Shown: positions 2,235 through 23,100, numbered from the stretch's first letter. The stretch: 64,000 nucleotides of DNA from Gammaproteobacteria bacterium (GCA_030147845.1 JASBUN010000022.1:6152-70151); one strand, 5' to 3'. Numbers and translations are program-made. The notes: generated by a model not told the origin, from the letters alone.

Positions 2235-4205
2235 CTAACGTGGTGGTTTGATTCCGTATCGTTTCATTTTTCGATACAGGGTGTTCCGGCTCAGGCCGAG
2301 CTTGCGCGCCGCCTTGGCAATATTCCACCGTAAAGCTTCCAGTTCACGAAGTAGGGCCGTGCACTCGGCCATCGACAACGGGTCATCGAATGGCGTTTCC
2401 GGCTCAACTTGTTCAACCGTTTGTTCACTGGGCGCCGACAGAACGGTTGGTTGCTTTACCTCCGGCGGAAGATCGTCTACAGAAATGGCTTTACCGCCGC
2501 ACAAGGCGACCAGTGTCCTTAATATATTGCAGAGTTGCCGAATGTTGCCCGGCCAACTGTAGCGGGCAAGTATCTCCAAGGCTTCGTGGGTAATCGTCGC
2601 GTCGACATTGGCGCGATTTTGTTCCAACCAGAGCAATTTGGCGATGAGCTCGCGTTTATCGGTACGCGCTCGTAGCGCCGGCATGGTGATGCTCATTCCA
2701 TGCAAGCGGTAAAATAAATCTTCACGGAAGCGCCCGCTCTCCATTAATTCGGGCAAACTGCGGTGGGTGGCGCTTATGATGTTTACGTCGACTTTTTCAG
2801 GCGTTTCGCCACCAAGAGGTACGACTTCCTTTTCTTCCAGCACCCGCAATAATCGTGCTTGCAAAGCCAGCGGCATATCACCGATTTCGTCGAGAAACAG
2901 GCTTCCACCATTCGCCTGCGCAATTTTTCCTCGGCTACCTTTTCGGTTTGCGCCCGTAAATGCGCCAGGACGATAGCCAAACAGTTCACTTTCGATGAGC
3001 GATTCCGGAATGGAGGCGCAGTTCACAGCGATGAATGGCTTTCCTTGACGAACACTGCCATCGTGGAACGCTTTGGCAAATACGCCTTTGCCGGTACCCG
3101 TTTCGCCATATATGAGTAACGGGATATCCCGATCGGTGATCATGCGCGCGCGGCGGATATTTTCAGAAATTACGGCGTCGCTCGATTCCAAATGCTCGAA
3201 GCCGGCGCTTGTAGTGCGCTCGCGCTGCGGTCGTCCCTCGTCACTATCCCGCCTGGAGACCGGCGCGGGCGTTTTCAACGCGGCTTCCGGCAGTTGAACG
3301 ATACCGAAGAAGCGCCGGCCATCTTTGCTAGTGTGTATCGGCGTCGGATGGAAAGATTGACGTCGGCCGAGTGCGAGTAGTGCGTCGAGTGTGGTGTCGA
3401 ACACTTGGCTCAACGATTGACCCAGTACGTTGTCGCATTTGAGTCCGAGTTGGAACAGTGCGCTACGGTTGGCGCCAAGTACGTTGCCGGACCCGTCGAA
3501 CGCCAGCGCACCTTCGCCCAAGGTGCTAACAAATTCAGGCCGACTATGAAACCGCAGTATGAAGTCGTTTCGAAAGGCGCAAAGAAACAGGCGATTCTCG
3601 ATGGTCTGAGCCGACATGTTAACCAGTACCATCGTATGCTGCTGCGCCATACTGGACTCACTTGACGCATCTAATATCGCGATGGTCTTGCCGCGCGGAT
3701 CGACAATGGGCGCCGCCGAACACGTGAGGCCGGTATGCTGAGCGAGGAAGTGCGCCTCTTTGTGCACTACCAACGGTCTGCACTCGATTATGCAGGTTCC
3801 CATACCGTTGGTGCCTTGTGCCTCCTCGCTCCAGACCGCACCGTTTTGCAACCCGCTTCGGGCAGCGGCGTTGGTGAACAGTGGATCCCCTACATAGTTA
3901 AGTATCACGCCGTCCATGTCGGTAAGAAGAATGGCATAGCCGGAACCAGCCACTTGCTGGTAAAGACTGGTCATCTCATTCTTCGCCAATGCCAACAGGC
4001 GTGCCAAACGTTCTTGACGCTCATTGAGATCGGCGTGCGCGATGACGACCGGTTCGCGCCGGGCTAATGGGTCGAGTTGATAGTCGGCCGTACACCTTTG
4101 CCAGGATGTACGTACGGCGGGGTCCATTTGTGCAATTGCGTCTCGATTACCGGCTAGCACCGAATCGATTAACCGGATGTGTTCAGATGGCTGCGGATAT
4201 TGCAT
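2235..4205 (-). CDS. Sigma-54-dependent transcriptional activator, AcoR-like (N-terminal GAF-type sensor, AAA+ sigma-54 interaction domain, C-terminal Fis-type HTH)
   Basis: GETGTGKGVFAKAFH Walker A; ESELFGY...GAFTGA GAFTGA motif; C-terminal LSRNTLYRKMKRYGI HTH; 656 aa. Confidence 0.85.
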   Translation of the reverse strand: MQYPQPSEHIRLIDSVLAGNRDAIAQMDPAVRTSWQRCTADYQLDPLARREPVVIAHADLNERQERLARLLALAKNEMTSLYQQVAGSGYAILLTDMDGVILNYVGDPLFTNAAARSGLQNGAVWSEEAQGTNGMGTCIIECRPLVVHKEAHFLAQHTGLTCSAAPIVDPRGKTIAILDASSESSMAQQHTMVLVNMSAQTIENRLFLCAFRNDFILRFHSRPEFVSTLGEGALAFDGSGNVLGANRSALFQLGLKCDNVLGQSLSQVFDTTLDALLALGRRQSFHPTPIHTSKDGRRFFGIVQLPEAALKTPAPVSRRDSDEGRPQRERTTSAGFEHLESSDAVISENIRRARMITDRDIPLLIYGETGTGKGVFAKAFHDGSVRQGKPFIAVNCASIPESLIESELFGYRPGAFTGANRKGSRGKIAQANGGSLFLDEIGDMPLALQARLLRVLEEKEVVPLGGETPEKVDVNIISATHRSLPELMESGRFREDLFYRLHGMSITMPALRARTDKRELIAKLLWLEQNRANVDATITHEALEILARYSWPGNIRQLCNILRTLVALCGGKAISVDDLPPEVKQPTVLSAPSEQTVEQVEPETPFDDPLSMAECTALLRELEALRWNIAKAARKLGLSRNTLYRKMKRYGIKPPR

Positions 4206-5046
4206 AGGTCACCTAGTGCCGGACAGTAAAGAGGCAATCGAACGTTACCTTGTCAGGCGCGATTGCGCATTTATCGTTATGCGTTGGCGAAAAGGCTTCC
4301 TTGCAGCAACGCCGGCTAAATTCACGTGCAATATATAGGCCGAGTCTATGCTGGGGTGCTCGGGTCAGCGCACTACCAGCACGATAGGTGATCGGATCGC
4401 AAGCGAACCACTTGGTTCATCGGTTCCAACGTTCCGTCTCCTAGCCGCGCCCCCAATAAAACATACAAAAAACACGCTGTAAAGGAGCGGTTAATCGGTA
4501 GGCCTGCCGGCTTGTAAATTAATGTGTCAGTTTTGGCGCATTCCGGCTTATGTTGCCGTTACGGTCGCCAGTAAATTTTCGCACCGTCGTCCGTGATGCA
4601 CGGGGTCCGGGAGTTTCAGTCGGCGTTGGCCGTGCGTTGAACTCGAACGGGTAACGTGATCACCCGACTAGGCCAGCCAGCACGCGGTGCAGCAAAACCG
4701 TAACCGACTGTCGAGCCAGCTAGCATGCCGGTCGTATACCCGCATTGCGGTGCGTTGAGCGCGGCGAAATGAGGTTAGGTTTAGCGCGCTTACTGATCGA
4801 AACTCATTTTGTCAGTCGTGGTTAGCCGGTCGATGTCGTTACCAGTGGGTCTGCTACGGTGGGCGTGCCCATCACGCGCATCAGTATATAAGTACATTAA
4901 TGTATTGTCAGTTTTCGTACTGCTCGCGCTGCGCTTTTCGCCAGCATGGTGACGTCAATCGTGGCAACCGGAGTGCAATCGGCGGGCGTGTCGTACTTAT
5001 TTCCCGCTGTATCGATCGCACACTGTATCACCCAGGTGGCACTGTC

Positions 5047-5062
5047 GTTGCCGTTGTGCTGC
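5047..5062 (+). promoter_or_regulatory. Candidate sigma-54 (-24/-12) promoter TGGCAC-N5-TTGC
   Basis: TGGCACtgtcgTTGCC matches the GG-N10-GC spacing and the TGGCAC/TTGC consensus exactly. Lies about 370 bp upstream of the ABC operon start and divergent from the sigma-54 activator. Confidence 0.5.
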
Positions 5063-5217
5063 CGAGAAGAGACAGTTGAGTTCTCGTCCATTCCGCCGCA
5101 CCGGACGCGCGTTCGCGCAACAATGCATACCTATACCGACGGATCGTGCGTGTGCGGTACGTCAGGCGTGCAATGTGGATCAATTGTACGTTTAACATCG
5201 AAACCGTATTAACTCTT

Positions 5218-5233
5218 GGCACACCTCATGCAT
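5218..5233 (+). promoter_or_regulatory. Second candidate sigma-54 promoter (TGGCAC-N5-ATGCA)
   Basis: TGGCACacctcATGCA has correct GG-N10-GC spacing and a conserved -24 element, but ATGC instead of TTGC at -12. Lies about 195 bp upstream of 5427. Confidence 0.35.
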
Positions 5234-5426
5234 ACGCAGACCTAATACGAATTTTTCCGATGCACCGGATTGTCAGTCGCAAAGTAGGCACGCATTCGTT
5301 GTGTAGTCGATAAACGCGACGTGCGAGAAAAGCGAATCGGCACGTTAAAGGTGCGGCCAAAATTTTGGTCTCGTCCACGGTTTTGGATGAGGACGTAGTC
5401 GGCAGTCCGTCAGTTGGCCGCGGCAT

Positions 5427-6266
5427 TTGATTCGATCCGGAATTCAAAGAGCGACGTTTATGAATACAGTGGTGCGTAACGAAAAATATTGGCTCATGGC
5501 TGCCGGCTATATCGGCGCGATTTTTCTCTGGTACGCCAGCGTTAAGTGGTTACCAATAAGTTCGTTCAATAGACTTCCCGACCCGCTGTCGGTGATTCGC
5601 GAATGGCTTAGCCCGGACCCGAGCTACGGCATCTCCATTTTTACCAGCGACTACTACGTACATATTTGGTACAGCACCTATCGCGCCTTCACAGCATTTT
5701 TTCTCGCCGTTCTGCTCGGCGTTCCATTGGGAATCTTTATGGGGTGGAATGCGAAATTTCGTGAATTTTCCGGTGCCCTGGTGGGCTTGCTACGACCAAT
5801 ACCGCCCCTGGCATGGGTGCCTCTGGCTATTCTACTGTTTCCGGGTGTCGAGCCGGCGGTCATCTTCGTGACTTTTCTAGTGGCGTTCTTCGCCACCACG
5901 ATGAACACCCTGGTAGGCGTGAGATCCATCGACGAGGATTATTTCCGCGCTGCGCGTTGCCTTGGTGCCAGTCGGACCGACATCCTTCGTGACGTCATTG
6001 TCCCAGGAGCACTTCCGCATATTTTTACCGGTCTGCAAATCGCGATGGGAGCCGCGTGGTTCTCACTCGTCGCGGGCGAAATGATCGCTGCGCAATATGG
6101 GCTCGGATATGTGATTTGGGAAGCCTACAACTTGATCCAGTATCCAACTATTGTGATTGGCATGGCGACACTAGGGATTGTCGGATTTCTTAGCAGCGCT
6201 GCAATTCGATGGGTCGGTCAGCGGCTTATGCAGTGGCGTGAAGAATCGCTCGGCCTCGGAGGTTGA
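5427..6266 (+). CDS. ABC transporter permease, NitT/TauT family (nitrate/sulfonate/bicarbonate type), permease 1 of a hetero-oligomeric system
   Basis: Multi-TM protein with the conserved loop AARCLGASRTDILRDVIVPGALPHIFTGLQIAMGAAWFSLVAGEMIAA, typical of SsuC/TauC/NrtB-type permeases. Confidence 0.8.
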   Translation: MIRSGIQRATFMNTVVRNEKYWLMAAGYIGAIFLWYASVKWLPISSFNRLPDPLSVIREWLSPDPSYGISIFTSDYYVHIWYSTYRAFTAFFLAVLLGVPLGIFMGWNAKFREFSGALVGLLRPIPPLAWVPLAILLFPGVEPAVIFVTFLVAFFATTMNTLVGVRSIDEDYFRAARCLGASRTDILRDVIVPGALPHIFTGLQIAMGAAWFSLVAGEMIAAQYGLGYVIWEAYNLIQYPTIVIGMATLGIVGFLSSAAIRWVGQRLMQWREESLGLGG

Positions 6267-6270
6267 CGGC

Positions 6271-7155
6271 ATGGAACAGGTAATGAAGCGCGATCGGGGC
6301 TCGAACAATAGCGAGGGATTGGCGCCAAGACCCGAGTTCGGGAAACTGTCGATCCGGAACGCGGGAAAAACGTATGACCCACAGGGTTCGGCCGTCGTCG
6401 CCGTGCATGATTGCAGCATTGAGATAGAGGCCGGCGATTTTGTAGCGATTGTCGGCCCCTCGGGGTGTGGCAAGAGCACTTTAATGAATGTGCTTGCGGG
6501 ATTCGATAACGTCACGAGTGGCGAAGTGTATCTTGACGACTCCTTGCTTGCGTCTCCGCGACAAGCTCCAAGCCCAGGGGCAGATCGCGTCGTGGTGTTT
6601 CAAAACGGAGCTTTATTTCCTTGGAAAACGGTGCTTGAAAATGTCACCTATGGATTACTAAAGACGAACGCGATGAGCCGCGCTTCCGCCGAAGAGAAGG
6701 CGAAGGATTTTCTAAGCCGTTGCGGTGGGCTCGATAAGGTAATGCGCTCATACCCGGCACAACTTTCGTCCGGCATGCAGCGGCGTGTGGAAATTGTACG
6801 TGCCTTGGTCAACGAACCCAGAATCCTGCTATTGGATGAGCCGTTTCGTGCGATGGACACCATTTCAAAAACGACCATGCATCAGCACCTTCTGAAAATG
6901 TATAGCACATGCCGAAGAACGATCGTGTTTATCACACATGATTTGGAAGAGGCGATTTATTTGTCAGATAAAGTCATTGTCATGACGACTCGTCCGGGGA
7001 CGGTGAAGCTGGAGTTAACGGTTCCGTTGCCAAGGCCAAGGACGCCGGAGATGACGGCTTCGGTCGAATACATGGACCTAAAAAAAGAAGCAATAGAATC
7101 GGTGCATGAAGAAGCGAAAAAGGCGTTTGAACGTGGTGAGCGAGAATTGGCGTAA
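6271..7155 (+). CDS. ABC transporter ATP-binding protein, NitT/TauT family (ATPase 1)
   Basis: Walker A GPSGCGKST, signature LSSGMQRRV, Walker B LLLDEP. Start taken at the internal ATG at 6271 with a GGAGG RBS; the ORF-track start at 6178 would overlap the permease. Confidence 0.85.
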   Translation: MEQVMKRDRGSNNSEGLAPRPEFGKLSIRNAGKTYDPQGSAVVAVHDCSIEIEAGDFVAIVGPSGCGKSTLMNVLAGFDNVTSGEVYLDDSLLASPRQAPSPGADRVVVFQNGALFPWKTVLENVTYGLLKTNAMSRASAEEKAKDFLSRCGGLDKVMRSYPAQLSSGMQRRVEIVRALVNEPRILLLDEPFRAMDTISKTTMHQHLLKMYSTCRRTIVFITHDLEEAIYLSDKVIVMTTRPGTVKLELTVPLPRPRTPEMTASVEYMDLKKEAIESVHEEAKKAFERGERELA

Positions 7156-7166
7156 GGGGAGTTGAT

Positions 7167-8012
7167 ATGCCGGATGTGGAAGAATCCATCAGAGCCGCGC
7201 ATGCAGTGAAGTCGGAGCGCTCGACGAACAACACCAAGCGTGCGTTTCGGCTGAGAATTCCACGCATTCGATGGCGCGGCGCGCTTGCTATCGTTGGATT
7301 TTTTATTCTGTGGGATCTATTGGTACGTAACCAAGCCCCGGGGTTTGATTCGATTCCGTCGCCACTGGCTGTGATTCAGATATTTTTTAAGCAGTTTGCT
7401 TTCACGGCGACATATTGGCATTCGTGGTTTGTTAGTTTTCAGCGGGTAATGTATGGCTTCATCCTGGCGCAGCTTTTGGGCATCCCGTTGGGTTTGATTT
7501 TGGGAACACGAAAGAGAGTAAATTATCTACTGTTTCCGATTATCGAACTGCTCCGGCCGATCCCACCGTTAGCGTGGGTGCCGCTATCAATTTTGTTTTG
7601 GCCGACGAACGAACTGAGCATCGTCTTCATCACATTCATTGGCGCCTTCTTCATTATCGTCATCAATGTCTATGACGGCGTCAGAACGATAAGAAAAGAA
7701 CACTTCTGGTTGGCCCAATCGTTGGGTGCATCGCAGAGCACCATATTTCGTCGAATTATTATCCCATCCGTAATTCCCTCGATCGCGGTGGGCATGACGC
7801 TCGGAATAGCCGTGACCTGGAACGTTGTTATTGCAGCCGAAATGATCGCTAGCGATAGCGGACTGGGTCGTCTCACCTGGGAAGGCTATGTTAGCGGCTC
7901 GCCGTCGATCGTTGTCGTGGGCATGATCAGCATCGGCATAGCGGGATATCTCTCGACCATCATCGTTGATTACATTGAAAAGCGAATGATGCCTTGGAAA
8001 CAACTTTCGTAA
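7167..8012 (+). CDS. ABC transporter permease, NitT/TauT family (permease 2)
   Basis: Paralogous to the 5427 permease (LRPIPPLAWVPL, AQSLGAS..FRRIIIPS, AAEMIAS motifs); GGGGAG RBS. Confidence 0.8.
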   Translation: MPDVEESIRAAHAVKSERSTNNTKRAFRLRIPRIRWRGALAIVGFFILWDLLVRNQAPGFDSIPSPLAVIQIFFKQFAFTATYWHSWFVSFQRVMYGFILAQLLGIPLGLILGTRKRVNYLLFPIIELLRPIPPLAWVPLSILFWPTNELSIVFITFIGAFFIIVINVYDGVRTIRKEHFWLAQSLGASQSTIFRRIIIPSVIPSIAVGMTLGIAVTWNVVIAAEMIASDSGLGRLTWEGYVSGSPSIVVVGMISIGIAGYLSTIIVDYIEKRMMPWKQLS

Positions 8013-8053
8013 CAAAACCTGTGAGCGAGCGTGGCGGCCGGACGGAGAAGCAC

Positions 8054-8860
8054 ATGAATACGACGAGCGGGGCGTTGGTGGGCAAGAATATTTCGAAGAC
8101 CTACGCCGTCAAGGGTAGGGCGGATGCGGTGGCGCTGAAGGATTGCACGTTCCACTTTGAAGCAAACAAGCTGAACGTAGTCATGGGCACGTCGGGCTGC
8201 GGTAAGTCAACGCTCGCGTATATTCTCGCCGGCTACATTGCGCCGGACGAAGGTAATTTGACCTTGGATGGTCAGCCGGCAAAGGGACCGATCGGTAACC
8301 GGTTAATGGTATTCCAAGAGACCGCGTTGTGGCCGTGGATGACGGTTGAAGACAACGTTACTTTCGGCCCCGTTGTTAGAGGTACGCTCTCACGCGCTCG
8401 CGCCAAGGCGCGCTCGCACGAGTTGTTGGACAAATTTGGGCTCGGTGATTTCAAAACCAAGTATCCAGAGCAGCTATCAGGTGGCATGAAACGGCGCGCG
8501 GAGCTCGCGCAAGCGCTAATCAACAGTCCGGATGTCATGGTTCTCGACGAGCCTTTTCGCGGTCTCGACGTAATGAGTCGGGAGCTGATGCAAGAGTATT
8601 TTCTGCGCCTATTTGAAGACACTGGCCTGACGACGATATTCATCACCTCGGAACTAGAGGAAGCGATTTTTCTTGCTGATCGAATTTACATCATGTCGGA
8701 TGCGCCAGGACGTATAGTGGATGTAATTGAAGTGGACTTACCAAGACCAAGGGAAGTTTCCTGTTTGACCACGGAAAGATACAGAGAGTTGAAGGAAATC
8801 GCGCTGAAATCGCTCTACGGACACATAAAGACGGAAGAGAACGATTTTGCGATAAGTTAG
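8054..8860 (+). CDS. ABC transporter ATP-binding protein, NitT/TauT family (ATPase 2)
   Basis: GTSGCGKST Walker A, LSGGMKRRA signature, VLDEPF Walker B. Internal ATG at 8054 with a GGAG RBS preferred over the track start at 7994. Confidence 0.85.
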   Translation: MNTTSGALVGKNISKTYAVKGRADAVALKDCTFHFEANKLNVVMGTSGCGKSTLAYILAGYIAPDEGNLTLDGQPAKGPIGNRLMVFQETALWPWMTVEDNVTFGPVVRGTLSRARAKARSHELLDKFGLGDFKTKYPEQLSGGMKRRAELAQALINSPDVMVLDEPFRGLDVMSRELMQEYFLRLFEDTGLTTIFITSELEEAIFLADRIYIMSDAPGRIVDVIEVDLPRPREVSCLTTERYRELKEIALKSLYGHIKTEENDFAIS

Positions 8861-8914
8861 CCCGATTTAACAGCCGGAAAAACAACTACTACAGATATAA
8901 AACGAGGAGCGGCT

Positions 8915-10006
8915 ATGAACAAAGTTTCCAAATTAGTGATCGGCGTACTCGGTGTATTTGCCGTACACGCTGCGGCTTATGCCGCTGACCCCGTCCATAT
9001 AACTTACGGTTATCATCCCTATTGGACCGGAGGTTGGAACGGTGTCATCATCAAGGCAAAAGGATTGTGGAAAAAATATCTCCCGCCTGGTAGCACCGTT
9101 AAATTTGAGCCGCATCTGACCGGTCCACCGATGGTGAATGCACTGCTCGCAAATAAGATGCAGATTGGCACCATGGGAGACATGCCGTCGCTAGTCGCGA
9201 CAACGAAAAAAAATATCGCAGATATACGTTTGGTTTCGGTTCCGATGTTTAGTGATGGGCAGAACTGCAACAAGATCGTGGTGCGGAAGGACGCACCCAA
9301 CTTCAAAGACGTAAAACAGGCCATGAAATGGCTGAATGGCAAGAATTTTGCCGTGCATCGTGGCACCTGCGCCAATCGATTTGTAAAATCGATCATCGAG
9401 AAAGGCGCTTTCACTCCCAAACGTGTGATGTATATGCCAATCGAAGTGATTGCCAGCAACTTTGAAGCGGGCAAGTTGGATGCCGCCGCAATGTGGGAGC
9501 CGCATGCTCGAAGGGTGGTCGAGAAAGGTTTTGCAAAGTACGCGGCTACTGGCGCGCCTTGGAACGAGACCGACGCCGATTTCACTCTCATGCGGGAAGA
9601 TTTTATTAAACAACATCCGGAAGCCGCAGTTGGTTGGATGAAGGCGGAAATCGAAGCGGTGCGGTTTATGGCCGAGCATCCGAAACAGACCGCCGAAATC
9701 ATGGCGAAAGAGCTTGTCAACTATACGCCGGAGATGGCGTGGACGGCCTTGTATGAGAAAAACCCGAAGAGCATAGGCGGCGCAAAAGTAAACTACATCG
9801 GTAAGATGGTGTTCGATGCGCAAGCGCTGGACTTGATGAAGAAAGGTTATGCGTTCTTATATAAGATGAAGGTGTTGAAGTCACCTGACATGCCTAAAAA
9901 CGCTTACGATCCGGGCCCGATTAATACGGCGCTGAAGGAGCTGGGCATGAAGGCGCCGGTTGGCGAGATTGTAGGCCGGCCGCGCGCGGACATGCCCAAG
10001 TTTTAA
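8915..10006 (+). CDS. ABC transporter periplasmic substrate-binding protein, NitT/TauT (NMT1/SsuA-like) family
   Basis: N-terminal signal peptide MNKVSKLVIGVLGVFAVHAAAYA; 363 aa; last gene of a permease-ATPase-permease-ATPase-SBP operon; GAGGAG RBS. Confidence 0.75.
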   Translation: MNKVSKLVIGVLGVFAVHAAAYAADPVHITYGYHPYWTGGWNGVIIKAKGLWKKYLPPGSTVKFEPHLTGPPMVNALLANKMQIGTMGDMPSLVATTKKNIADIRLVSVPMFSDGQNCNKIVVRKDAPNFKDVKQAMKWLNGKNFAVHRGTCANRFVKSIIEKGAFTPKRVMYMPIEVIASNFEAGKLDAAAMWEPHARRVVEKGFAKYAATGAPWNETDADFTLMREDFIKQHPEAAVGWMKAEIEAVRFMAEHPKQTAEIMAKELVNYTPEMAWTALYEKNPKSIGGAKVNYIGKMVFDAQALDLMKKGYAFLYKMKVLKSPDMPKNAYDPGPINTALKELGMKAPVGEIVGRPRADMPKF

Positions 10007-10030
10007 TCACGGGCGCTAAGTGCTGACGCG

Positions 10031-10079
10031 AAGACGTACACCCAAGCGGGTTTGGAGTTGGTGCATGGGTGTACGTCTT
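10031..10079 (+). terminator. Candidate intrinsic terminator / stable hairpin after the SBP gene
   Basis: 14-bp perfect stem AAGACGTACACCCA...TGGGTGTACGTCTT with a 21-nt loop, followed by the T/A-rich TTATATACAC. Confidence 0.4.
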
Positions 10080-10140
10080 TATATACACTGAAATTGGCGT
10101 AGTGCATTTCTGAATCGGAGTCCCCGAGGATACAACCGAC

Positions 10141-10539
10141 ATGGACAAAGAACACTATGGCGTGTGCCGCTGGGACAAAAATGGCTATGAGTCGTGGACG
10201 CCTTTTGGCAAGATAAATATGTTCGATAGTGGCGGCCAGAGGGCGGTTGAACTATTTCTGCTGTCGGCGGCCGCCTGTTTGAATTTCTATTTGGTCGAGT
10301 ACGTGCGCAATCGTAACTTACCGGTGCGTGAACTTCACGTGCGCTGCGATGGCGATATGCTCAAGGCCCCGGAACGTGTTGGAAAAATGACTACGGTTGT
10401 TCGGATTGATGCGGATCTGTCCGATAAAGATCGCGCCAAGATGGTGAAGATGTGCGAGCGCGCATGTAAAGTGATGAACACGCTCAAGGATAGCCCGACG
10501 ATCGAGGTTGTAATACAGGCGATTGACACGCAAAGGTAG
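10141..10539 (+). CDS. OsmC/Ohr-family protein (OsmC-like peroxiredoxin fold)
   Basis: 132 aa; size and pattern (AAACLNFY ... CERACKV, two Cys) are consistent with the OsmC family; weak recognition only. Confidence 0.5.
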   Translation: MDKEHYGVCRWDKNGYESWTPFGKINMFDSGGQRAVELFLLSAAACLNFYLVEYVRNRNLPVRELHVRCDGDMLKAPERVGKMTTVVRIDADLSDKDRAKMVKMCERACKVMNTLKDSPTIEVVIQAIDTQR

Positions 10540-11061
10540 AGCGGCCGGAAGCGCTCAGATGACGCTCTTCCTCAAGCAATGTTCGTCGCCGGTGATTGTA
10601 AATCAAGCCAGTCCTGCACGCTTTAGATGTGCGTGTGTGGGGAGGCTGCCAGAGTGCTCTCCGCCCCAATCATGGACAAATCCTGATACTTCGCGCCGAT
10701 TGTTATAACGGCTCACGGCTGGCGTGCCCGGCGCTGGACAGTGGTGTCTCCGGAAAGTGTCCGTTCTTGTGACACACTGTTGCAACCGGCGAGCGCATCA
10801 CCCGGCTCGAGACCAAACGTGAGCGTAACTCCGGCGTGTTCCGAGCACGGTCGCGGTTTGCAACTACCGTCCGCGCTGGTGCGAGTAGCTCAATATGCGC
10901 TGCTGAACCGTTGTTTTTCCCGTATCTAACTGTTTTGATGAAAATAATGTAAGTGGCGCGGCCGGCTTATAGATCGTCTGTAGCGGCATACTCCGATTTT
11001 ACTCCCCTGCTCACCGAGATAAGCTTCCGGTTGTCGAAATGCTTGTCCCATCGCATACCGG

Positions 11062-11077
11062 TGGCACGACATTTGCT
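11062..11077 (+). promoter_or_regulatory. Candidate sigma-54 promoter TGGCACG-N4-TTGCT (perfect consensus)
   Basis: GGTGGCACGACATTTGCTCT has canonical -24 TGGCACG and -12 TTGC with correct spacing. Intergenic, about 400 nt upstream of the secreted DsrE-like gene. Confidence 0.5.
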
Positions 11078-11476
11078 CTGTTGACTGGAGGACGGTGCGG
11101 ACGACTTTCGCAACGTTATGGTGCCGCTCCGACAGGGCATCTGGAAAAATGGAAGCTATTTACATAAATGGCCTCCGAAATGATTGGTTTACCGAGCAGC
11201 AATAAGACTGAGCACGACTATGTGCAATCATCGTTGCTTTTTCGTTCGCAGACTTCGCAGGTCTTAGGGTCGGCGGTGCATTACACGGCACGTCCCAACT
11301 GCGACGCACTTTGATACGCAACTTAGTTTATCGATGCATGAATATACGTTGCATGACTCGATACGTGGAGAACGACTGGAAAGGGATAGCGTGTACGTAG
11401 AGGATGGCTGTTCATGCGTGATGCATTGGCGGCTTTTTCGCAAATTATAAATTTAGAACATCGGGAGGAGATCCAC

Positions 11477-11992
11477 ATGCTTACAAGCAAGCTAAGTAAA
11501 GTATGTACGAGCGCTATCTTTGGTCTGGTCGCAATGATGATTGGAGCAAGCAGTTACGCCGGTAGTGAACCGAACGATGCGCGCGCATTACACGGTTTGA
11601 CCTCGGCCAAGGCTATCTTCGACATTACCACCGCAAATCCGAAGAAACTGTATTTCTATTTGAACCTGATTGAGGCGACGGCGAAATCGATGGAGGCGCA
11701 AGGCGTAAAGCCGAAGTTCGTATTGGCGTTTCGTGGACCGGCGACATTCTATATGAGTAGTGACCGCAGTAAGATCAAACTCGAGGACGGCGAGATCGCG
11801 GATAAGATCGAGAAAAAGATCACCGAGCTCGGGCATGACCCAAATTTACATTTGGAGCAATGTTCCGTCGCTGCCCACGCCCTGCATGTCGACAAAAAAT
11901 CCATATATCGCCCGATCAAAGTCATCGGCAACAGTTGGATCTCGTTGATCGGATATGAAAACAGAGGTTACGCCATCGTTCCAGTGCGGTAG
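11477..11992 (+). CDS. Secreted DsrE/DsrF-like (YchN-like) family protein, paralog of 60820..61320
   Basis: Signal peptide MLTSKLSKVCTSAIFGLVAMMIGASSYAG; strong RBS GGGAGGAG 7 nt upstream of the ATG at 11477; conserved Cys context EQCSVAAHALHV and C-terminal VIGNSWISLIGYENRGYAIV are shared with the 60820 ORF. Family assignment is tentative. Confidence 0.45.
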   Translation: MLTSKLSKVCTSAIFGLVAMMIGASSYAGSEPNDARALHGLTSAKAIFDITTANPKKLYFYLNLIEATAKSMEAQGVKPKFVLAFRGPATFYMSSDRSKIKLEDGEIADKIEKKITELGHDPNLHLEQCSVAAHALHVDKKSIYRPIKVIGNSWISLIGYENRGYAIVPVR

Positions 11993-12179
11993 TATTCGAG
12001 CTAGCGTACAAGGTAGGCAGCGGGTCCATGCGCGGTGCGGCTTATGTTTAGTGCGGGTTTGGTGTTTAGGCTGAGCACTGATATTGGGCCGTACCGCCGG
12101 GGCAAAAGGGGTGGCGGATGCTGCCAATTGATCCGACTATCCACGATCTTAAGATGATCCAACCACGATTAAGTGAGAC

Positions 12180-12809
12180 ATGACAGAACGCAACTCCCAT
12201 ACAACTCAATTCGCACGGTGCCTCGGATTGGGTGCTTTGCTTATTTCGATACTCGGCTGCTCTACCGTAGTACACGACGAGACACAGCAGCGCAAAATCC
12301 TACAGGATAAGGTTGTAGGAAGTTACCGTTGGATAATGACGGCGCCGTCCGGCGTGAATTTCACGCTTGCTCAGCGGCTTCCCGATCAGACGCGCTCGTT
12401 TTATCTCGCGCGCGGCTTCTCATCCGCTGCCGCCAATAGTTATGCGATTTCATGCGTATTTCAGACCATCGTCCATAACGACACGAAAAAAAGCGTCGTT
12501 GCCTTCAATCTGGCCGATTGGCGAATTATCGAAAATGGACACGAGCGTCCACTGAAACTTACCTCGCAATGGCAGCAGGATTGGAAAAAAATGGGTCTAC
12601 CAAAAAGCGCACAAATTGCGTTTCAGTGGTCACAATTCCCAACTATACAGAAGCACAATCCGGGCGATTGGTTTCAAGGGATGATTGCTGCAGGACTGCC
12701 GCCCGGCTCCACGTTTGGAGTAAAGATCGTTTGGACTCAAGACGGTGTGCCGCATCAGGCCAAGATGACCGATATACAGTGTCCGAAAGACCGGACAATA
12801 AAGAGGTAA
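12180..12809 (+). CDS. Hypothetical lipoprotein
   Basis: Lipobox LISILGC at the N-terminus; gene-like codon usage; no recognisable domain. Confidence 0.5.
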   Translation: MTERNSHTTQFARCLGLGALLISILGCSTVVHDETQQRKILQDKVVGSYRWIMTAPSGVNFTLAQRLPDQTRSFYLARGFSSAAANSYAISCVFQTIVHNDTKKSVVAFNLADWRIIENGHERPLKLTSQWQQDWKKMGLPKSAQIAFQWSQFPTIQKHNPGDWFQGMIAAGLPPGSTFGVKIVWTQDGVPHQAKMTDIQCPKDRTIKR

Positions 12810-12815
12810 TTAGAC

Positions 12816-13346
12816 ATGCTGAAGAAGATACCGCTGGCGATCATTTTTGCTGTTGCGCTTGTATTCGGTACGGGTGGTACCGCGGGTGCGGCGGAAATGC
12901 AGACAATACAGGCCGTTCCGCAAAAGCCCGCTGCGCCGAATTTTACGTTGAAGGATTTGAACGACAAAACGCACAGTTTGTCTGATTTCCGCGGCAAGGT
13001 GGTTGCGGTAAATTTTTGGGCGACATGGTGCCCGCCATGCCGGAAAGAACTGCCGTCCATGCAGCGGGCCTATAAGGATTATCACAAAAAAGGTTTCGTT
13101 ATTCTCGGTGTCAACGAAGGCGAGGATTGGGATACGATCGCGCCCTTTCTTGAGAATTTCTCGCTGACCTATCCTATTTTGCTCGACAAGGAATCAACGG
13201 TTATCGGCAAGTGGAAAGTACTCGGTTTGCCAACCACGTTTATCGTCGATCGAAAGGGAAGAATCACACATCGAATCAATGGTGGGCGTGATTGGGATGA
13301 TCCCGCGTTCCGCAAGGCGTTGGAAGCCGCTATTGACGGTGATTGA
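12816..13346 (+). CDS. Periplasmic thiol:disulfide oxidoreductase, TlpA/ResA/CcmG-like thioredoxin family
   Basis: Signal peptide plus VNFWATWCPPCRKELP (the WCPPC active site typical of TlpA-like reductases). Confidence 0.85.
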   Translation: MLKKIPLAIIFAVALVFGTGGTAGAAEMQTIQAVPQKPAAPNFTLKDLNDKTHSLSDFRGKVVAVNFWATWCPPCRKELPSMQRAYKDYHKKGFVILGVNEGEDWDTIAPFLENFSLTYPILLDKESTVIGKWKVLGLPTTFIVDRKGRITHRINGGRDWDDPAFRKALEAAIDGD

Positions 13347-13515
13347 GTAACTCCTGTCAGCCATAACTACAGCTAAGTCGCAGCGGCTATCAGCCCGCTT
13401 TAGCGCGATTAGGTGGGTGGCTCGACAATGTCTTTGGGCTTGCGCCGATTCGGACGATAATTTCGCCGTCGGCGCCGGGCGTACTCGGGGGATTCAGGTG
13501 AAGATACAGAAATTT

Positions 13516-15375
13516 ATGGCGATGGTTGGCGCCGTCGTCATTGCAAGTACGATATGGGCGCTGCCGCTAAGCGCAGCGCACGCGGATTTTTTACCTCCTG
13601 AACAGGCCTTCGTGCTGGCGCAGCCGACGGTGGTGGATGGCGGGAAAGCGATCCTGTTGCAATGGAAAATCGTCGATGGTTATTACCTCTACCGCGATAA
13701 AATAAAAGTACGGGCTGGCGGCGAAGATCACGGTTTTAAGCTGGGCACGCCGGTAATGCCGGCCGGAAAAACGCACAAGGATCCAAGTTTTGGCACCGTG
13801 GTGGTTTACTACCATGAACTCCGTGCGCAGGTTCCGGTGTCGGGCGCTGCGGCCGGTTCGACCGTATTGCTTAAGGTGCGTTATCAGGGGTGCGCGGATG
13901 CAGGGTTATGCTATCCACCACAGACGCGCACGGTAAGTGTCTCAATGCCATCTGTGGGGGGAGGTGCGTCGACTGCCGCTGTGGCCACTTCGACGCCCGC
14001 GCCACCGTCGGGTACTGTGAGTCGGTCGCCCGCGGCACCCAGTGCCGGCACGCCCCCGGAGTCAGAGCAAGGGAAATTGGTCGAGCTGCTCAAGAACGGC
14101 AGCGCGCTGGCGATTATAGGCGCGTTCTTTCTTGCCGGTTTGGGCTTGTCATTAACGCCGTGTGTGTTCCCGATGATCCCCATTTTGTCCGGAATAATCG
14201 TCGGGCAAGGCGAAGGTATTACTACCAAGCGCGCATTCGGATTGTCGGCGATCTATGTCTTCTCGATGGCTGCTACGTATACGGTCGCCGGCGTTTTGGC
14301 CGGACTATTCGGCAAGAACTTACAGGCCAGTTTGCAGAATCCATGGGTGATCTCGGCGTTCGCCGCCATATTTATTGCGCTGGCTCTATCCATGTTTGGA
14401 CTTTACAACCTGCAATTACCTGCGAGTTGGCAAAGTCGTCTGACCGAAGCGAGTAATCGACAACGCGGCGGTACCCTGATTGGCGTCGGTGTCATGGGGT
14501 TTCTGTCAGCATTAATCGTGGGTCCCTGTGTCGCGGCGCCGATCGCTGCGGCCCTGATCGTTATCGGTCAGAGCGGTGATCCCGTGCTTGGCGGAGAGGC
14601 CTTGTTTGCCCTTAGTCTCGGCATGGGGGCGCCGTTGCTCCTGATTGGTACCAGCGGCGGAAAGCTGCTTCCACGCGCCGGCGCATGGATGAACACCGTC
14701 AAGGCTGTGTTTGGCGTGGTTATGTTGGGCGTAGCGATCTGGATGCTGGAGCGGATACTGCCAGGTCCGTTGACACTCGTGCTGTGGGGCCTGCTGCTGC
14801 TGGTAAGCGCGGCTTATCTTGGTGCTTTTGATGCGCTACCAGAGAAGATGAGAGGCTGGAGAACCCTCTGGAAAGGTTTTGGTATTGCTCTGGCGCTCTA
14901 CGGAGCGGCGTTGCTGCTCGGGGCATCGCTAGGTAGTGATGATCCATTGCAGCCGCTTGCGAGATTAGGCGCGGGCGGGATTGCCACGGCAACTGCCGAG
15001 CCGAGCCATGGGTTAAGCTTCGCTCGAGTTCGAAACTTGACCGATTTGCAAGCGAAGGTAAAAGCCGCGGCAAGTGAGGGGCGAATTGTTATGCTCGATT
15101 TCTATGCCGACTGGTGCGTGTCATGCAAGGAGTTAGAGCGAAACACATTCACGGATCCCGCCCTGCGTGCGCAACTGTCGAACGCAGTATTACTGCAAGC
15201 CGATGTAACCAAAAACAGTGCCGACGACATCGCACTGATGCGGGCTTATCATGTCATCGGACCACCAACGGTACTATTCTTTGGCGCCAACGGTAACGAA
15301 CGCTATAACCTTCGGGTAGTCGGATACCTCGACGCAAGCCAGTTTCGGGCCCGAGTGAACCGCGTAATCAATTGA
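13516..15375 (+). CDS. dsbD: Thiol:disulfide interchange protein DsbD (DipZ)
   Basis: N-terminal periplasmic domain, central membrane domain with CVFPMIP and GPCVAAP cysteine motifs, C-terminal thioredoxin domain DWCVSCKE. Start taken at the MAMVGAVVIAS signal peptide rather than the track start at 13417. Confidence 0.85.
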   Translation: MAMVGAVVIASTIWALPLSAAHADFLPPEQAFVLAQPTVVDGGKAILLQWKIVDGYYLYRDKIKVRAGGEDHGFKLGTPVMPAGKTHKDPSFGTVVVYYHELRAQVPVSGAAAGSTVLLKVRYQGCADAGLCYPPQTRTVSVSMPSVGGGASTAAVATSTPAPPSGTVSRSPAAPSAGTPPESEQGKLVELLKNGSALAIIGAFFLAGLGLSLTPCVFPMIPILSGIIVGQGEGITTKRAFGLSAIYVFSMAATYTVAGVLAGLFGKNLQASLQNPWVISAFAAIFIALALSMFGLYNLQLPASWQSRLTEASNRQRGGTLIGVGVMGFLSALIVGPCVAAPIAAALIVIGQSGDPVLGGEALFALSLGMGAPLLLIGTSGGKLLPRAGAWMNTVKAVFGVVMLGVAIWMLERILPGPLTLVLWGLLLLVSAAYLGAFDALPEKMRGWRTLWKGFGIALALYGAALLLGASLGSDDPLQPLARLGAGGIATATAEPSHGLSFARVRNLTDLQAKVKAAASEGRIVMLDFYADWCVSCKELERNTFTDPALRAQLSNAVLLQADVTKNSADDIALMRAYHVIGPPTVLFFGANGNERYNLRVVGYLDASQFRARVNRVIN

Positions 15376-15522: not shown

Positions 15523-16284
15523 TCAGCCTTGCAAACTTTCCTGCATTTCAGCGCAGTATTGCTCCAAATGCTCCGGTACGTCAGGCGGACAAACACCGCA
15601 TTGACGATTACCAGGTACTGCGTAATCAATGAACTTCGGGTAGGCAAGATCCATTTCTTCCATAATCCGGACGAACTCGTCTAGCGGCTTATCGTTTCCA
15701 AGCCGCGGGTTGCGTATTTTTTCCTGGCCTATGCTGGTGACGCGTCGGCCTTCGTAGTCGTGCGCGGGAAACACCAAGCTGTCATCCGGTAACGAGAACA
15801 GTTTGTCGTGGATACTTCTGTAGAGTGTCCGCGCATCGCCGTTTTGAAAATCCGTTCGGCCGCAGGCCTCGATCAAAAGCGCATCGCCGCTGAATACGCG
15901 ATCGCTCAAACCGTCTTGAACGCGATAGGCATGATGGCCGTCAGTATGCCCTGGCGTGAATAGCGGATCGAGGCGGATGCTGCCCATTTCGAACGGTTTC
16001 CCGTCTTCGATCTCGATATCGACACACGGAAGTTTGTCGACCCCCGGATGTGCGATACGGCTGCCGGCCTCACGACGTAAAGTCAGCGCAGACGTGATGT
16101 GGTCGGCGTGGATATGGGTGTCGAGCGTGAAGGCGAGCTTCAACTTGAGCTCATTGATAATTCCGAGATCGCGTTCCCATGTCGGCAGCACCGGGTCGAT
16201 GAGTAGTGCCTGGCCCGTATCCTCGCAGGCGAGGAGATAGGTATAGGTGCTGGATATTGGTTCAAAGAGCTGACGAAAAATCAT
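15523..16284 (-). CDS. MBL-fold metallo-hydrolase, persulfide dioxygenase (ETHE1/Blh)-like
   Basis: HxHxDH motif THIHADHIT, GHTDGH, about 250 aa with a Cys-containing C-terminal extension. Start taken at the internal Met (MIFRQLF) rather than the track start at 16353. Confidence 0.7.
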   Translation of the reverse strand: MIFRQLFEPISSTYTYLLACEDTGQALLIDPVLPTWERDLGIINELKLKLAFTLDTHIHADHITSALTLRREAGSRIAHPGVDKLPCVDIEIEDGKPFEMGSIRLDPLFTPGHTDGHHAYRVQDGLSDRVFSGDALLIEACGRTDFQNGDARTLYRSIHDKLFSLPDDSLVFPAHDYEGRRVTSIGQEKIRNPRLGNDKPLDEFVRIMEEMDLAYPKFIDYAVPGNRQCGVCPPDVPEHLEQYCAEMQESLQG

Positions 16285-16704
16285 GTAAGAATTCCTTTGC
16301 AACGATCGATGTACTACACGGCAGTTTAGCAGCCATACGCGCATCGGCAGCATGTGACCATTATTTCATGCCCGCTCAGTGGCCTGACGCCGGGACCTTG
16401 CCGATATGCGTAGAGGCATTAAGGAGTATTGAAACGACGGTCCGCAGGACGGCTGCCGAGCGCGAGTGTATGTAGCCGTCAGCCGTGTTGGTCACCGCCA
16501 AAAAATACGCCAGCGAAGCACATCAGGCAAGGCGCGCAAAGGCCACGCCAACGGCTTTGCGCCGCTAGCGATGTTGCTCCAGCGTGCGCCGGCCCGCAGT
16601 CGCCACCATAGGCCGACGCGCAGCTTAGGTGCCCGATATAGTCGCTTCTGTGGTCCGTACAACGATTTATTTGTTGGTTTTATTGAACAATTAGGGTCGA
16701 GCGC

Positions 16705-16732: not shown

Positions 16733-16764
16733 GGATTCATAATGAATGCAATTGAATCCAATTT
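16717..16764 (+). promoter_or_regulatory. Nested palindromic operator-like element (AAATTGGATT...GGATTCA-N13-TGAATCC...AATCCAATTT)
   Basis: 10-bp outer and 7-bp inner inverted repeats overlapping the -10 hexamer and the 5' end of the GntR-family gene; plausible autoregulatory operator. Confidence 0.4.
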
Positions 16765-16774
16765 AGAGAGTCGA

Positions 16775-17461
16775 ATGGCGATGAATTCGCAGGAACGCGC
16801 GTACAAGTACATCAAGGATGAAATTATCGGCTATCGATTGAAGCCGAACGAGCGTCTTACTGCAGCGTCATTGGCGTCGATACTCAATATCAGCCGCACC
16901 CCAGTCCGCGAAGCGCTGAGCCGCTTGGAACAAGAACGGTTGGTGGTACGCGAATCTGGCTGGGGCTATGTCGTTCGGCCCATGACGTTTGCCGATGTGG
17001 CCAATATATTTCGCGTTCGCGAGGCTCTTGAAATTGAAGCGGCCTATGAGGCGCTGCCGAATCTCGATGACGGAGCGGCAGATTTTATGAGTGCGTTGTT
17101 GGCGCGTGCGGAGGAGTTGCTGGCCGAGAATGAAGTTTCGGAATTCCTGCGCATAAACCGGCAGTTTCACAACACCTTCGCGGAATACAGTGGCAATTGG
17201 GTGTTGCAGGACATGTTGCAGATGATCACCGATCGCATACAGATCGTCGGCGCTTTGGTTATTGATCGTTATCCGCAACGCGCGGTCGAAATATTGCAGG
17301 AAAATAAGCGCATTCTAGCTGCGGTACGCACTAAGAATGCGAATCTGGTAGACACCGAGCTGCGCGCCCATATCCGCCGAGCACGTGAGCGTGTAAGTAC
17401 ATTTTTAAAGCAGGAGTCACGGCATTTTTATCTGGGGGATGGTGCACGCTATCCCGTCTAA
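16775..17461 (+). CDS. GntR-family transcriptional regulator (FadR/FCD subfamily)
   Basis: N-terminal wHTH (LTAASLASILNISRTPVREALSRLEQERLVV) plus a C-terminal FCD-like helical domain. ATG at 16775 has an AGAGAG RBS; the track start at 16742 is in frame. Confidence 0.8.
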   Translation: MAMNSQERAYKYIKDEIIGYRLKPNERLTAASLASILNISRTPVREALSRLEQERLVVRESGWGYVVRPMTFADVANIFRVREALEIEAAYEALPNLDDGAADFMSALLARAEELLAENEVSEFLRINRQFHNTFAEYSGNWVLQDMLQMITDRIQIVGALVIDRYPQRAVEILQENKRILAAVRTKNANLVDTELRAHIRRARERVSTFLKQESRHFYLGDGARYPV

Positions 17462-17832
17462 CCAGGAAGCGATAGGCATTACGTCTCGCCCACGAGACAG
17501 CATACACGCGGTCAGTTAGCAGTCGGCCACAATAGATATAACTATAAAACAGTCCGAGTTGTTGAGAAGTTCGGCTCAACACGACAGGAGGATGGACCAT
17601 GTCCGTCACACCGCCTAGAACATGCGTATCCGCCATTCTGTATTTGGCGCGCCTTCATTGCCCGTTCTCTATGTACGTGTCCGTAGTCGGGCCTCCCGGA
17701 AAGTCATCTGAAGTTTCGTAGTTGGCAGTAATTTCTTGACGCACTAGTAGCGCGCCAATCTGTCGCCGACCGCGCGCTACCGACTTTTCTGGTTCGCCAG
17801 GGGGGTTGCTGCCGTATCCACAGGAGACTCGG

Positions 17833-19568: not shown

Positions 19569-19614
19569 ATTATAACGATAGCAAAATTCCGGTCCCACCG
19601 GGGAGGGCGATATT

Positions 19615-20640: not shown

Positions 20641-20728
20641 ATGCGTAGGCGCGGGCCGGTTTTGTTACGTGCGGTCTGTATTGTTAATACGCCGAATATT
20701 TTTTTATCGATTTGGAGGTGAAGCAAAC

Positions 20729-22694: not shown

Positions 22695-22746
22695 ATTTGT
22701 TTTCGTAGTCAAAGAGCTGGGCCGTAACCTTTATTTGGAGCCGATC

Positions 22747-23079: not shown

Positions 23080-23100
23080 CGCGTCAGGAGTATTGCGGTA

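Follow-up and report, generated by a model that had tools for sequence, protein, structure and literature searches.

Importers of the NitT/TauT family of ATP-binding cassette (ABC) transporters typically, though not by strict definition, have one permease gene and one ATPase gene. The DNA analyzed here, a stretch of 64,000 nucleotides from a gammaproteobacterium (GCA_030147845.1, JASBUN010000022.1:6152-70151; hereafter the window), has at positions 5427-10006 five open reading frames (ORFs), all on the + strand, in the order permease, ATPase, permease, ATPase, binding protein, so that there are two of each component where one is usual, and both pairs are conserved in related loci. The question raised by this locus is whether the five genes make one transporter, and which substrate it would carry. 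A first-pass annotation had proposed an obligate hetero-oligomeric importer with this gene order followed by an OsmC-like gene, and had listed C1/C2 sulfonates among the substrates to consider; the order is borne out by the ORF calls and Pfam domains, and the sequences lend support to the hetero-oligomer through positional orthology in about 75 loci and through complementary defects in the two ATPases, which are predicted to work only as a heterodimer in which one site is consensus and the other degenerate. The genes are as follows (TMD, transmembrane domain; NBD, nucleotide-binding domain).

5460-6266, + strand: permease 1 (TMD-A), BPD_transp_1 (E 4.5e-27), positional equivalent of MsmF
6271-7155, + strand: ATPase 1 (NBD-A), ABC_tran, signature LSSGM, Walker A/B, Q-loop and H-loop canonical
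7167-8012, + strand: permease 2 (TMD-B), BPD_transp_1 (E 1.5e-26), positional equivalent of MsmH
8054-8860, + strand: ATPase 2 (NBD-B), ABC_tran, signature LSGGM and Walker A/B canonical, H-loop His replaced by Ser
8915-10006, + strand: periplasmic substrate-binding protein (SBP), NMT1_2/NMT1, Sec signal peptide, SsuA/TauA fold
10141-10539, + strand: cytoplasmic OsmC-family thiol protein, OsmC (E 7.5e-13)

Complementary Motif Changes in the Two ATPases

Motif counts were taken from alignments of 72-75 sequences per subunit. Walker A, the Q-loop and Walker B (DEPF) are canonical in both ATPase 1 and ATPase 2. ATPase 1 retains the H-loop histidine in all 73 sequences and has the signature xSSGM in 71 of them, or in 71 of 71 when only true orthologues are counted, the two exceptions (LSAGM and LSGGM) belonging to a paralogue cassette in loci L059 and L064. 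ATPase 2 has the signature LSGGM throughout (74/74) and the H-loop histidine in none of 74 sequences, with serine as the commonest replacement followed by alanine and threonine. HMMER alignment to CmpD, which has a canonical SGG signature and an H-loop histidine at the deviating positions, places the ATPase 1 segment LSSGMQRR on ISGGMKQR, with the serine at the first glycine of SGG, and the ATPase 2 segment ITSELEEA on ITHDIDEA of the H-loop.

One NBD contributes Walker A/B, the Q-loop and the H-loop to a nucleotide site and its partner contributes the signature (PMC7756269), and because each site is built from both NBDs the two deviations fall in the same composite site and leave the other with consensus motifs throughout. 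In a homodimer of either ATPase both sites would be defective, so only the heterodimer gives one clean site. The comparison of degenerate and consensus nucleotide sites suggested in the first-pass annotation is therefore positive, with a non-consensus H-loop in one NBD and a non-consensus signature in its partner meeting in one site, and this defect pattern is a sequence hallmark of an obligate asymmetric NBD heterodimer.

Conservation and Integrity of the Cassette

The binding protein of the window has 561 homologues in a large protein collection, the best 120 of which are all 64-80% identical to it, and an exhaustive search (1.84 billion; 50%-identity clusters) gives 99 matching cluster representatives at E ≤1e-30 and 268 at E ≤1e-10. 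This group is a small, sharply bounded branch of the NMT1/SsuA superfamily. The binding protein was used to anchor 83 loci, 80 from a scan of one genome per species and 3 from contig look-ups, in which all ORFs were re-searched with the window proteins; the cassette recurs in about 75. In every locus with enough sequence to show it, the four core genes run permease 1, ATPase 1, permease 2, ATPase 2, and each of these ORFs matches best its positional counterpart, with identities of 62-80% for permease 1, 54-73% for ATPase 1, 52-74% for permease 2 and 52-72% for ATPase 2. The EAA loops of permease 1 (RAA-CLGa...PGAlP-IFTG) and permease 2 each have their own conserved form. The cassette occurs in Alpha-, Beta- and Gammaproteobacteria, Desulfarculaceae and Nitrospirota, with Thiobacillus thioparus DSM 505, Thiogranum, Thiohalobacter (a metagenome-assembled genome, MAG), Acidiferrobacter, Hyphomicrobium, Microbaculum, Arenicellales and "Ca. 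Poriferihabitaceae" among the named hosts. Only the binding-protein gene changes place, being last in sulfur-oxidizing Beta- and Gammaproteobacteria and sponge symbionts and first in many Alphaproteobacteria, Desulfarculaceae and Thermodesulfovibrio/Nitrospirota. These genes do not stand together by chance.

All five genes are full length when compared with the roughly 75 orthologues, the window lengths and orthologue medians being 268 and 268 amino acids for permease 1, 294 and 291.5 for ATPase 1, 281 and 273 for permease 2, and 268 and 265 for ATPase 2. Full length and conservation in about 75 loci rule out that either permease-ATPase pair is a pseudogene, which the first-pass annotation had named as an outcome that would overturn its proposal. 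Orthologue length makes the ATG at 5460 the likely start of permease 1 rather than the TTG at 5427, and favors the ATG at 8054 for ATPase 2, where the TTG at 7994 would overlap permease 2 by 19 bp. The tight packing first described (gaps of 4-12 bp) applies to the first two junctions, at 4 and 11 bp, and not to the other two, at 41 and 54 bp; a further 134 bp separate the binding-protein gene from the OsmC gene.

The permeases (EAA loop; NtrB/TauC/SsuC as best matches), the ATPases (NtrCD/TauB/SsuB/CmpD/NrtD best) and the secreted binding protein all fit the NitT/TauT family. The top NCBIfam models for the cassette (SaoP/SaoA, TauC/TauB, NtrB/NtrCD and SsuA_fam) are all NitT/TauT and all score below their cut-offs (TauC 154 bits against 342, TauB 192 against 357, SsuA_fam 129.6 against 163.5, NtrB 147.5 against 209), so the family is clear and no characterized equivalog fits. 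Membership in the SAO group (SaoP/SaoA/SaoX) was rejected on scores far under the cut-offs. In tblastn comparisons within the window, identity is 37% between the permeases and 39% between the ATPases, each pair being as mutually distant as it is from a second system at 17806-20640. The 64-kb window holds three permease/ATPase pairs and only two binding proteins by tblastn with all components, which gives two NitT/TauT systems and not the three within 15 kb of the earlier count.

The Methanesulfonate Transporter and a Wider Clade

The msmEFGH genes, known from Methylosulfonomonas methylovora M2, Filomicrobium and Ca. Puniceispirillum, encode a binding protein, a membrane protein, an ATPase and a permease, and the Filomicrobium gene table has a second, unnamed ATPase directly downstream of them (PMC4433239). 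The same work gives the CXH-X26-CXXH spacer as diagnostic of the true methanesulfonate (MSA) monooxygenase MsmA (PMC4433239). A protein with this spacer is encoded in a second cluster of the window.

16742-25588: second cluster, with a GntR/FCD regulator (16742-17461), a NitT/TauT system, MsmAB-like genes, an aldehyde dehydrogenase and an epimerase
17806-18723, 18714-19568 and 19615-20640: ATPase, permease and binding protein of the three-gene NitT/TauT system
20669-22009: MsmA-like Rieske protein, CXH-X26-CXXH
22146-22694: MsmB-like small subunit

No msmC or msmD gene (ferredoxin, reductase) lies beside the MsmAB-like genes of the window. Locus L090 has the same arrangement of MsmAB and a three-gene system, with an MsmA 83% identical to that of the window, and in both the msmAB genes directly adjoin the three-gene system, whose ATPase is canonical.

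A scan of metagenomes with the MsmA-like protein of the window gave 52 loci. The complete five-gene cassette stands beside msmAB in 15 loci with the 26-residue spacer, and about 8 more have a partial cassette at a contig end. In the 15 complete loci each subunit finds its best match in its positional counterpart in the window cassette, at identities of about 38% for the binding protein, 54% for permease 1, 49% for ATPase 1, 46% for permease 2 and 52% for ATPase 2. The msm-linked ATPase 1 reads [IV]SSGM in 21 of 21 sequences with its histidine kept, and the msm-linked ATPase 2 reads LSGGM in 21 of 21 with threonine or serine for the H-loop histidine in all 20 that are readable. The published msmEFGH operon has thus probably been described without its fifth gene, a second ATPase lacking the H-loop histidine; this comparison draws on the msmA-linked metagenome loci and the published gene table.

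The window cassette and MsmEFGH share the NitT/TauT family, the five-gene content and the ATPase asymmetry. However, the window binding protein is not orthologous to MsmE, being 37-40% identical to the msm-linked proteins compared with 57-80% inside its own group and falling in a separate cluster at 50% identity, and by this measure the cassette is a paralogue, not an orthologue, of the MSA-type transporter. The binding-protein gene is last in the window and first in msm, although both orders occur among the window orthologues. The cassette does not adjoin msmABCD, the MsmAB-like genes lying 10.7 kb downstream, and its steady partner is an OsmC-family gene instead of a monooxygenase.

Further paralogue cassettes extend the set. 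Against the query that found them, the binding protein of the L064 paralogue, their own binding proteins show 34-48% identity, and against the window protein, in the cases measured, about 40%. In L059, L064, L087 and L088 a second cassette with an inserted DsrE-like gene lies in tandem downstream of the orthologous one; others are present in L084 (Syntrophobacteraceae, two in tandem), L085 (adjoining a Rieske oxygenase) and L086 (Methylovirgula). All retain the permease-ATPase-permease-ATPase (P-A-P-A) content, the first ATPase nearly always has xSSG (L059 and L064 deviate) and the second ATPase of most is without the H-loop histidine, whereas the ATPases of three-gene NitT/TauT systems have canonical motifs. 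In a neighbor-joining tree the ATPase 1-type sequences group as a single clade in every one of 100 bootstraps and the ATPase 2-type sequences in 63, with the ATPases of three-gene systems outside. The same subclades appear in each half, indicating that the ATPase duplication predates the split into substrate subfamilies. These sequence relationships place the window system in an old NitT/TauT clade of P-A-P-A type, to which the msm-linked transporters also belong.

The tandem cassettes are ordered ATPase 1', permease 1', permease 2', binding protein', a 143-residue protein, ATPase 2'. The 143-residue protein has no Pfam match and is 30-33% identical to the DsrE-like ORF of the window. In L064 the tandem cassette is followed by genes for rhodanese, OsmC proteins, SBP56/MtoX and SCO1. 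An arginine directly follows DEPF in both window ATPases (DEPFRAMD and DEPFRGLD) and in the P-A-P-A clade; this residue is alanine in L086 (DEPFAALD), the one three-gene-system ATPase examined, and glycine in CmpD. The arginine, with which the D-loop begins, is specific to the clade.

Comparison with Characterized Transporters

The closest solved structures for both ATPases are NrtBCD and CmpBCD (PDB codes 8wm7 and 9u9z; E 1e-43 to 1e-52), which belong to the same family and also use two different ATPases as a heterodimer. They differ in having a single permease gene, whose product forms a homodimer, and in the fusion of an NrtA-like regulatory domain to one ATPase (chains of 665-690 amino acids), a domain absent from the window ATPases (294 and 268 amino acids). 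The description of the cassette as atypical in the first-pass annotation is overstated, since the msm-linked transporters share the five-gene layout and NrtBCD and CmpBCD already provide NBD heterodimers within the family. SsuABC and TauABC resemble the window system in the fold of the binding protein, in part of its Gly/Ser-Thr helix-dipole anion site and in their permease and ATPase families, but have one permease gene and one ATPase gene, and the window proteins miss the corresponding NCBIfam equivalog cut-offs widely.

Outside the family, the asymmetric exporters TM287/288, TAP1/2, BmrCD and CFTR combine an H-loop defect with a signature defect in the partner to give consensus and degenerate sites (PMC7756269). 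Their TMD fold is different and their TMD and NBD are fused in one chain, whereas the window system is predicted to be a binding protein-dependent type I importer; the exporters also often have the Walker B glutamate replaced, which the window ATPases keep. The likeness is one of functional analogy, with no homology past the NBD. DppABCDF and OppABCDF likewise have two permeases, two ATPases and one binding protein (PMC12136057) but belong to another ABC importer family, their ATPases have Fe-S C-terminal domains, and in the mechanism proposed for them both ATPases bind and hydrolyze ATP (PMC12136057).

The Binding Protein and Its Likely Substrate Class

Sequence matches of the binding protein to SsuA (E 1e-8), TauA and NrtA are all remote (E 1e-8 or weaker, 14-20% identity), and it does not cluster with any characterized homodimeric system, the other outcome that the first-pass annotation had held against a heteromer. 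Its AlphaFold model (pLDDT 90) gives SsuA and TauA as the best Foldseek matches, with TM scores of 0.63-0.78 at 17-20% identity. In Xanthomonas citri SsuA the sulfonate oxygens are held at helix N termini by the backbone NH groups of Gly-68, Gly-86 and Ser-141 and by Gln-36 (PMC3839906). The corresponding anion-site segments in the window protein, aligned with Escherichia coli SsuA, are TGPP (69-72), GTMGDMP (85-91) and GTC (150-152), and these are invariant or nearly so in its group; the sulfonate-binding glutamine of X. citri SsuA is tryptophan or threonine. The other invariant residues include many Tyr, Trp, His, Met and Cys. These features suggest a site for an oxyanion head group, in a pocket that is small and soft or hydrophobic, and the likely substrate is a small organosulfur oxyanion in the sulfonate/thiosulfonate class, related to but distinct from methanesulfonate. 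Nitrate, bicarbonate and cyanate were set aside because the annotated recurrent neighbors are sulfur-related; the gene contexts examined give no pointer to them, and no test was aimed at these substrates.

Gene Neighborhoods

Neighboring ORFs of all loci were clustered and the representatives annotated. The commonest neighbor is an OsmC-family gene of one of two types, with conserved cysteine residues, adjacent to the cassette in about 50 related loci. T. thioparus and Gammaproteobacteria have a GcvH-like lipoyl protein, a lipoamide dehydrogenase (which passes its equivalog cut-off at 463.7 against 408.8 bits) and a rhodanese, and 11 loci have the SBP56/MtoX methanethiol oxidase with SCO1 and MauG. 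Sponge symbionts and others have MetY with a CoA-binding protein, a CBS/PALP enzyme and a class V aminotransferase. In Desulfarculaceae and relatives a full corrinoid methyltransferase set (URO-D, B12-binding, pterin-binding and RACo proteins) is accompanied by DUF1638 and TauE genes co-directional with the cassette. Six betaproteobacterial loci encode a fusion of TusA-like and Meth_synt_2 domains (TusA-MetE-like, 511 amino acids; L017:1436-2971) that starts about 18 bp (median) past the binding-protein gene. Two loci (L087 and L088) have TusA, DsrC, TauD and CysG, and another (L089) has TusA and rhodanese.

The common ground of these neighbors is sulfur, thiol/disulfide and methyl-thiol chemistry, which favors a small organosulfur anion, one possibly connected with methanethiol. 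Two papers on methanethiol oxidase (PMC5739008 and PMC6548844) make no mention of the transporter described here. At 1038-2169 on the - strand of the window, a gene resembling archaeoflavoprotein/dihydromethanopterin reductase overlaps a gene of the 6-pyruvoyl-tetrahydropterin synthase family; the two suggest that C1 metabolism is linked to tetrahydromethanopterin (H4MPT), which makes a methylotroph the probable source.

Regulation and Flanking DNA

The following features flank the cassette.

2235-4205, - strand: sigma-54 enhancer-binding activator (GAF-PAS-AAA+-HTH; Pfam Sigma54_activat, GAF, PAS and HTH_8)
5217-5232, + strand: candidate sigma-54 (-24/-12) promoter TGGCACACCTCATGCA, 228 nt before the ATG of permease 1
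11062-11077, + strand: candidate sigma-54 promoter TGGCACGACATTTGCT, near-consensus, ahead of the DsrE-like/TlpA/DsbD operon
11414-15375, + strand: periplasmic thiol/sulfur operon (Pfam, NCBIfam; signal and lipoprotein sequences read)
11414-11992, in this operon: exported DsrE-like protein
12180-12809, in this operon: lipoprotein
12816-13346, in this operon: TlpA/ResA-like thioredoxin
13417-15375, in this operon: DsbD

The activator gene is divergent from the cassette across a 1.2-kb spacer, reaches no NCBIfam equivalog cut-off, and presumably encodes the regulator of the cassette. The motif TGGCAY-N5-WTGCW has two matches in the 64 kb compared with 0.26 expected, and both stand before operons. 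A -24/-12 promoter motif of the type TGGCAC-N5-TTGCW and an enhancer-binding activator are thus found together, as would fit a sigma-54-dependent operon. Sigma-54 activators adjoin the cassette in 23 related loci, and a looser form of the motif is present upstream of it in 28 of 73 loci, mostly those with an activator nearby. Genes of the thiol operon recur close to the cassette elsewhere: all four in L014 and L015 (T. thioparus), three in L010 (Thiogranum), and those for the TlpA-like protein and the lipoprotein in two alphaproteobacterial loci (L004 and L005). The T. thioparus homologue of the DsrE-like protein gives a weak DsrE match, and the operon lipoprotein is without a family match. 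The paired sigma-54 motifs and the recurrence of the DsbD/TlpA set near the cassette make co-regulation of the importer, the OsmC gene and the periplasmic thiol operon plausible.

Two unusually long non-coding spacers, 4206-5459 (1.25 kb) and 10540-11413 (0.87 kb), are without an Rfam match. The first contains a repeat, ATTAATGT(N0-3)TGTCAGTTTT, at about 4517-4537 and 4896-4919, the copies of which could be activator-binding sites; when three candidate segments were aligned, the third was unconvincing. Rfam models run on the whole window gave only one tRNA and the bacterial small signal recognition particle (SRP) RNA (44149-44236 and 44456-44552), with no riboswitch in the 1.2-kb leader, and scans of 4200-11500 for terminators and sigma-70 promoters gave counts at chance level.

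Proposed Model and Alternatives

We consider it rather probable that the five genes encode one type I ABC importer, an obligate heterotetramer with one working ATP site, sigma-54 control and an organosulfur substrate; its subunit stoichiometry, single-site catalysis, regulation and substrate class are what we infer from what the sequences show directly, namely the genes and their conservation, the ATPase asymmetry, the place in the clade and the promoter motifs. The two permeases and the two ATPases would form the translocator, served by the one SsuA-like binding protein. Site 1, made of Walker A/B, the Q-loop and the H-loop of ATPase 1 and the LSGGM of ATPase 2, is consensus and predicted to hydrolyze ATP; site 2, made of Walker A/B of ATPase 2, which has no H-loop histidine, and the LSSGM of ATPase 1, is degenerate and would bind ATP and hydrolyze it poorly, giving one ATP per cycle as in the asymmetric ABC exporters. 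Expression would come from the sigma-54 promoter, probably driven by the adjacent GAF-PAS activator, and the OsmC-family thiol protein would take part in processing the substrate in the cytoplasm.

Several observations weigh against parts of this model. ATPase 2 keeps the catalytic Walker B glutamate (both ATPases have DEPF), so site 2 may retain some activity, and the replacement of the H-loop histidine by Ser, Thr or Ala and of the signature glycine by Ser is milder than the changes in many exporters. The bootstrap value of the ATPase 2 clade is 63%, with an outgroup of three sequences. Upstream of the two sigma-54 promoters no activator site is shared (no common words of at least 10 nt and no 7-nt palindromes), and regulators vary with lineage, T. 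thioparus having a PAS kinase and a LuxR-type regulator, so sigma-54 control is not universal. The neighbors vary by lineage, which could mean several substrates or general sulfur islands, and the OsmC gene could be a mere antioxidant companion.

A different assembly, in which permease 1/ATPase 1 and permease 2/ATPase 2 are two homodimeric transporters sharing one binding protein, or one of them is a redundant or regulatory spare pair, would agree with the permease homodimers used by characterized NitT/TauT systems and with the distance between the pairs, which at 37-39% identity is as large as that from the second window system. It is nevertheless highly improbable, because the ATPase defects cancel to one clean site in the heterodimer only, the pairs are never found apart or in another order in the approximately 75 SBP-anchored loci with enough DNA, the msmA-anchored cassettes also have five genes, and the split between ATPase 1 and ATPase 2 is older than the radiation of the clade.

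Other alternatives concern the substrate. The cassette could be its host's equivalent of MsmEFGH, importing methanesulfonate itself for the MsmAB-like oxygenase encoded 10.7 kb downstream. The five-gene layout and ATPase asymmetry are those of the msm-linked cassettes, the window has an MsmA-like protein with the 26-residue spacer and an MsmB-like protein (20669-22694), an orthologous cassette in L133 lies 4.5 kb from an msmA-like gene, and the H4MPT-type genes upstream suggest a methylotroph. We regard this as unlikely given that the binding protein is a paralogue of the msm-linked ones, that msmAB in the window and L090 directly adjoin the other, three-gene system, that no Rieske oxygenase is found among the recurrent neighbor families of the 83 loci (msmA was not among the queries), and that an oxygenase would be useless to the strict anaerobes. 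Thiocyanate or cyanate import, or copper acquisition for periplasmic copper enzymes, comes from a study in which two permeases, two ATPases and a sigma-54 two-component system were found beside thiocyanate dehydrogenase (TcDH) in Thioalkalivibrio, and NitT/TauT subunits, a peroxiredoxin, a TusA-related gene and a sulfide:quinone oxidoreductase (SQR) gene after the thiocyanate hydrolase genes scnABC in T. thioparus, with copper acquisition suggested (Berben et al. 2017; PMC5328954). The presence of the cassette family in T. thioparus and the Thiohalobacter MAG, the neighboring MtoX and SCO1 (copper enzymes) and TlpA/DsbD, and the many invariant Met, His, Cys and Trp residues of the binding protein are consistent with it. 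Orthology of the window cassette to those transporters could not be established, however; the T. thioparus DSM 505 locus is without scn genes among the ORFs scanned, the annotated recurrent neighbor families include no thiocyanate hydrolase, TcDH or cyanase, and no scnABC or TcDH was seen around the paralogue cassettes found through the L064 binding protein. An SsuA-like oxyanion dipole site with msm-linked proteins as nearest relatives is also atypical for metal binding, and a role in thiocyanate, cyanate or copper uptake appears quite improbable.

A more specific form of the organosulfur reading, and a long shot, is that the OsmC-linked P-A-P-A transporters import an unrecognized methyl-sulfur oxyanion that is cleaved by thiol chemistry. 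Candidates would be S-methyl thiosulfate, methanethiosulfonate, or a methylthio- or mercapto-alkanesulfonate such as (methyl-)coenzyme M. The OsmC protein would cleave the substrate and be re-reduced by lipoyl-GcvH and lipoamide dehydrogenase, giving methanethiol or a methyl group together with sulfite or sulfane sulfur. Such a substrate would explain the lineage-varied neighbors MtoX/SCO1/MauG, MetY and the corrinoid sets (URO-D, corrinoid protein, MtrH-like, RACo and DUF1638), and also the TusA-MetE-like fusion, TauE, rhodanese, TusA and the DsrE-like proteins. If true, methyl-sulfur import would be a new node of the organic sulfur cycle in sulfur oxidizers, methylotrophs, sponge symbionts and sulfate reducers.

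On the one-importer model the cassette would be an obligate five-component machine, forming a small, conserved and uncharacterized subfamily within an importer family that is very common. It may combine a consensus with a degenerate ATP site in a binding protein-dependent type I importer, a design studied almost only in exporters, and would offer a simple bacterial system for the role of a degenerate site in an importer. What is new here is the conserved pair of consensus and degenerate sites predicted from the motifs, the ancient clade that includes the methanesulfonate transporter with its probably overlooked fifth gene, and the OsmC/sulfur context. The family is common in sulfur oxidizers (T. 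thioparus, Thiogranum, Acidiferrobacter), Hyphomicrobium, sponge symbionts and Desulfarculaceae, its genes always have sulfur or methyl-sulfur neighbors, and its substrate could reveal an organosulfur compound so far overlooked in the sulfur cycle.

One further gene of the window, at 15523-16353 on the - strand, encodes a protein of the metallo-β-lactamase fold that resembles hydroxyacylglutathione hydrolase and the dioxygenase portion of Blh, a bifunctional sulfur transferase/dioxygenase, and may be a persulfide dioxygenase. Weak homologues of this protein are encoded near the cassette in L022 and L060.

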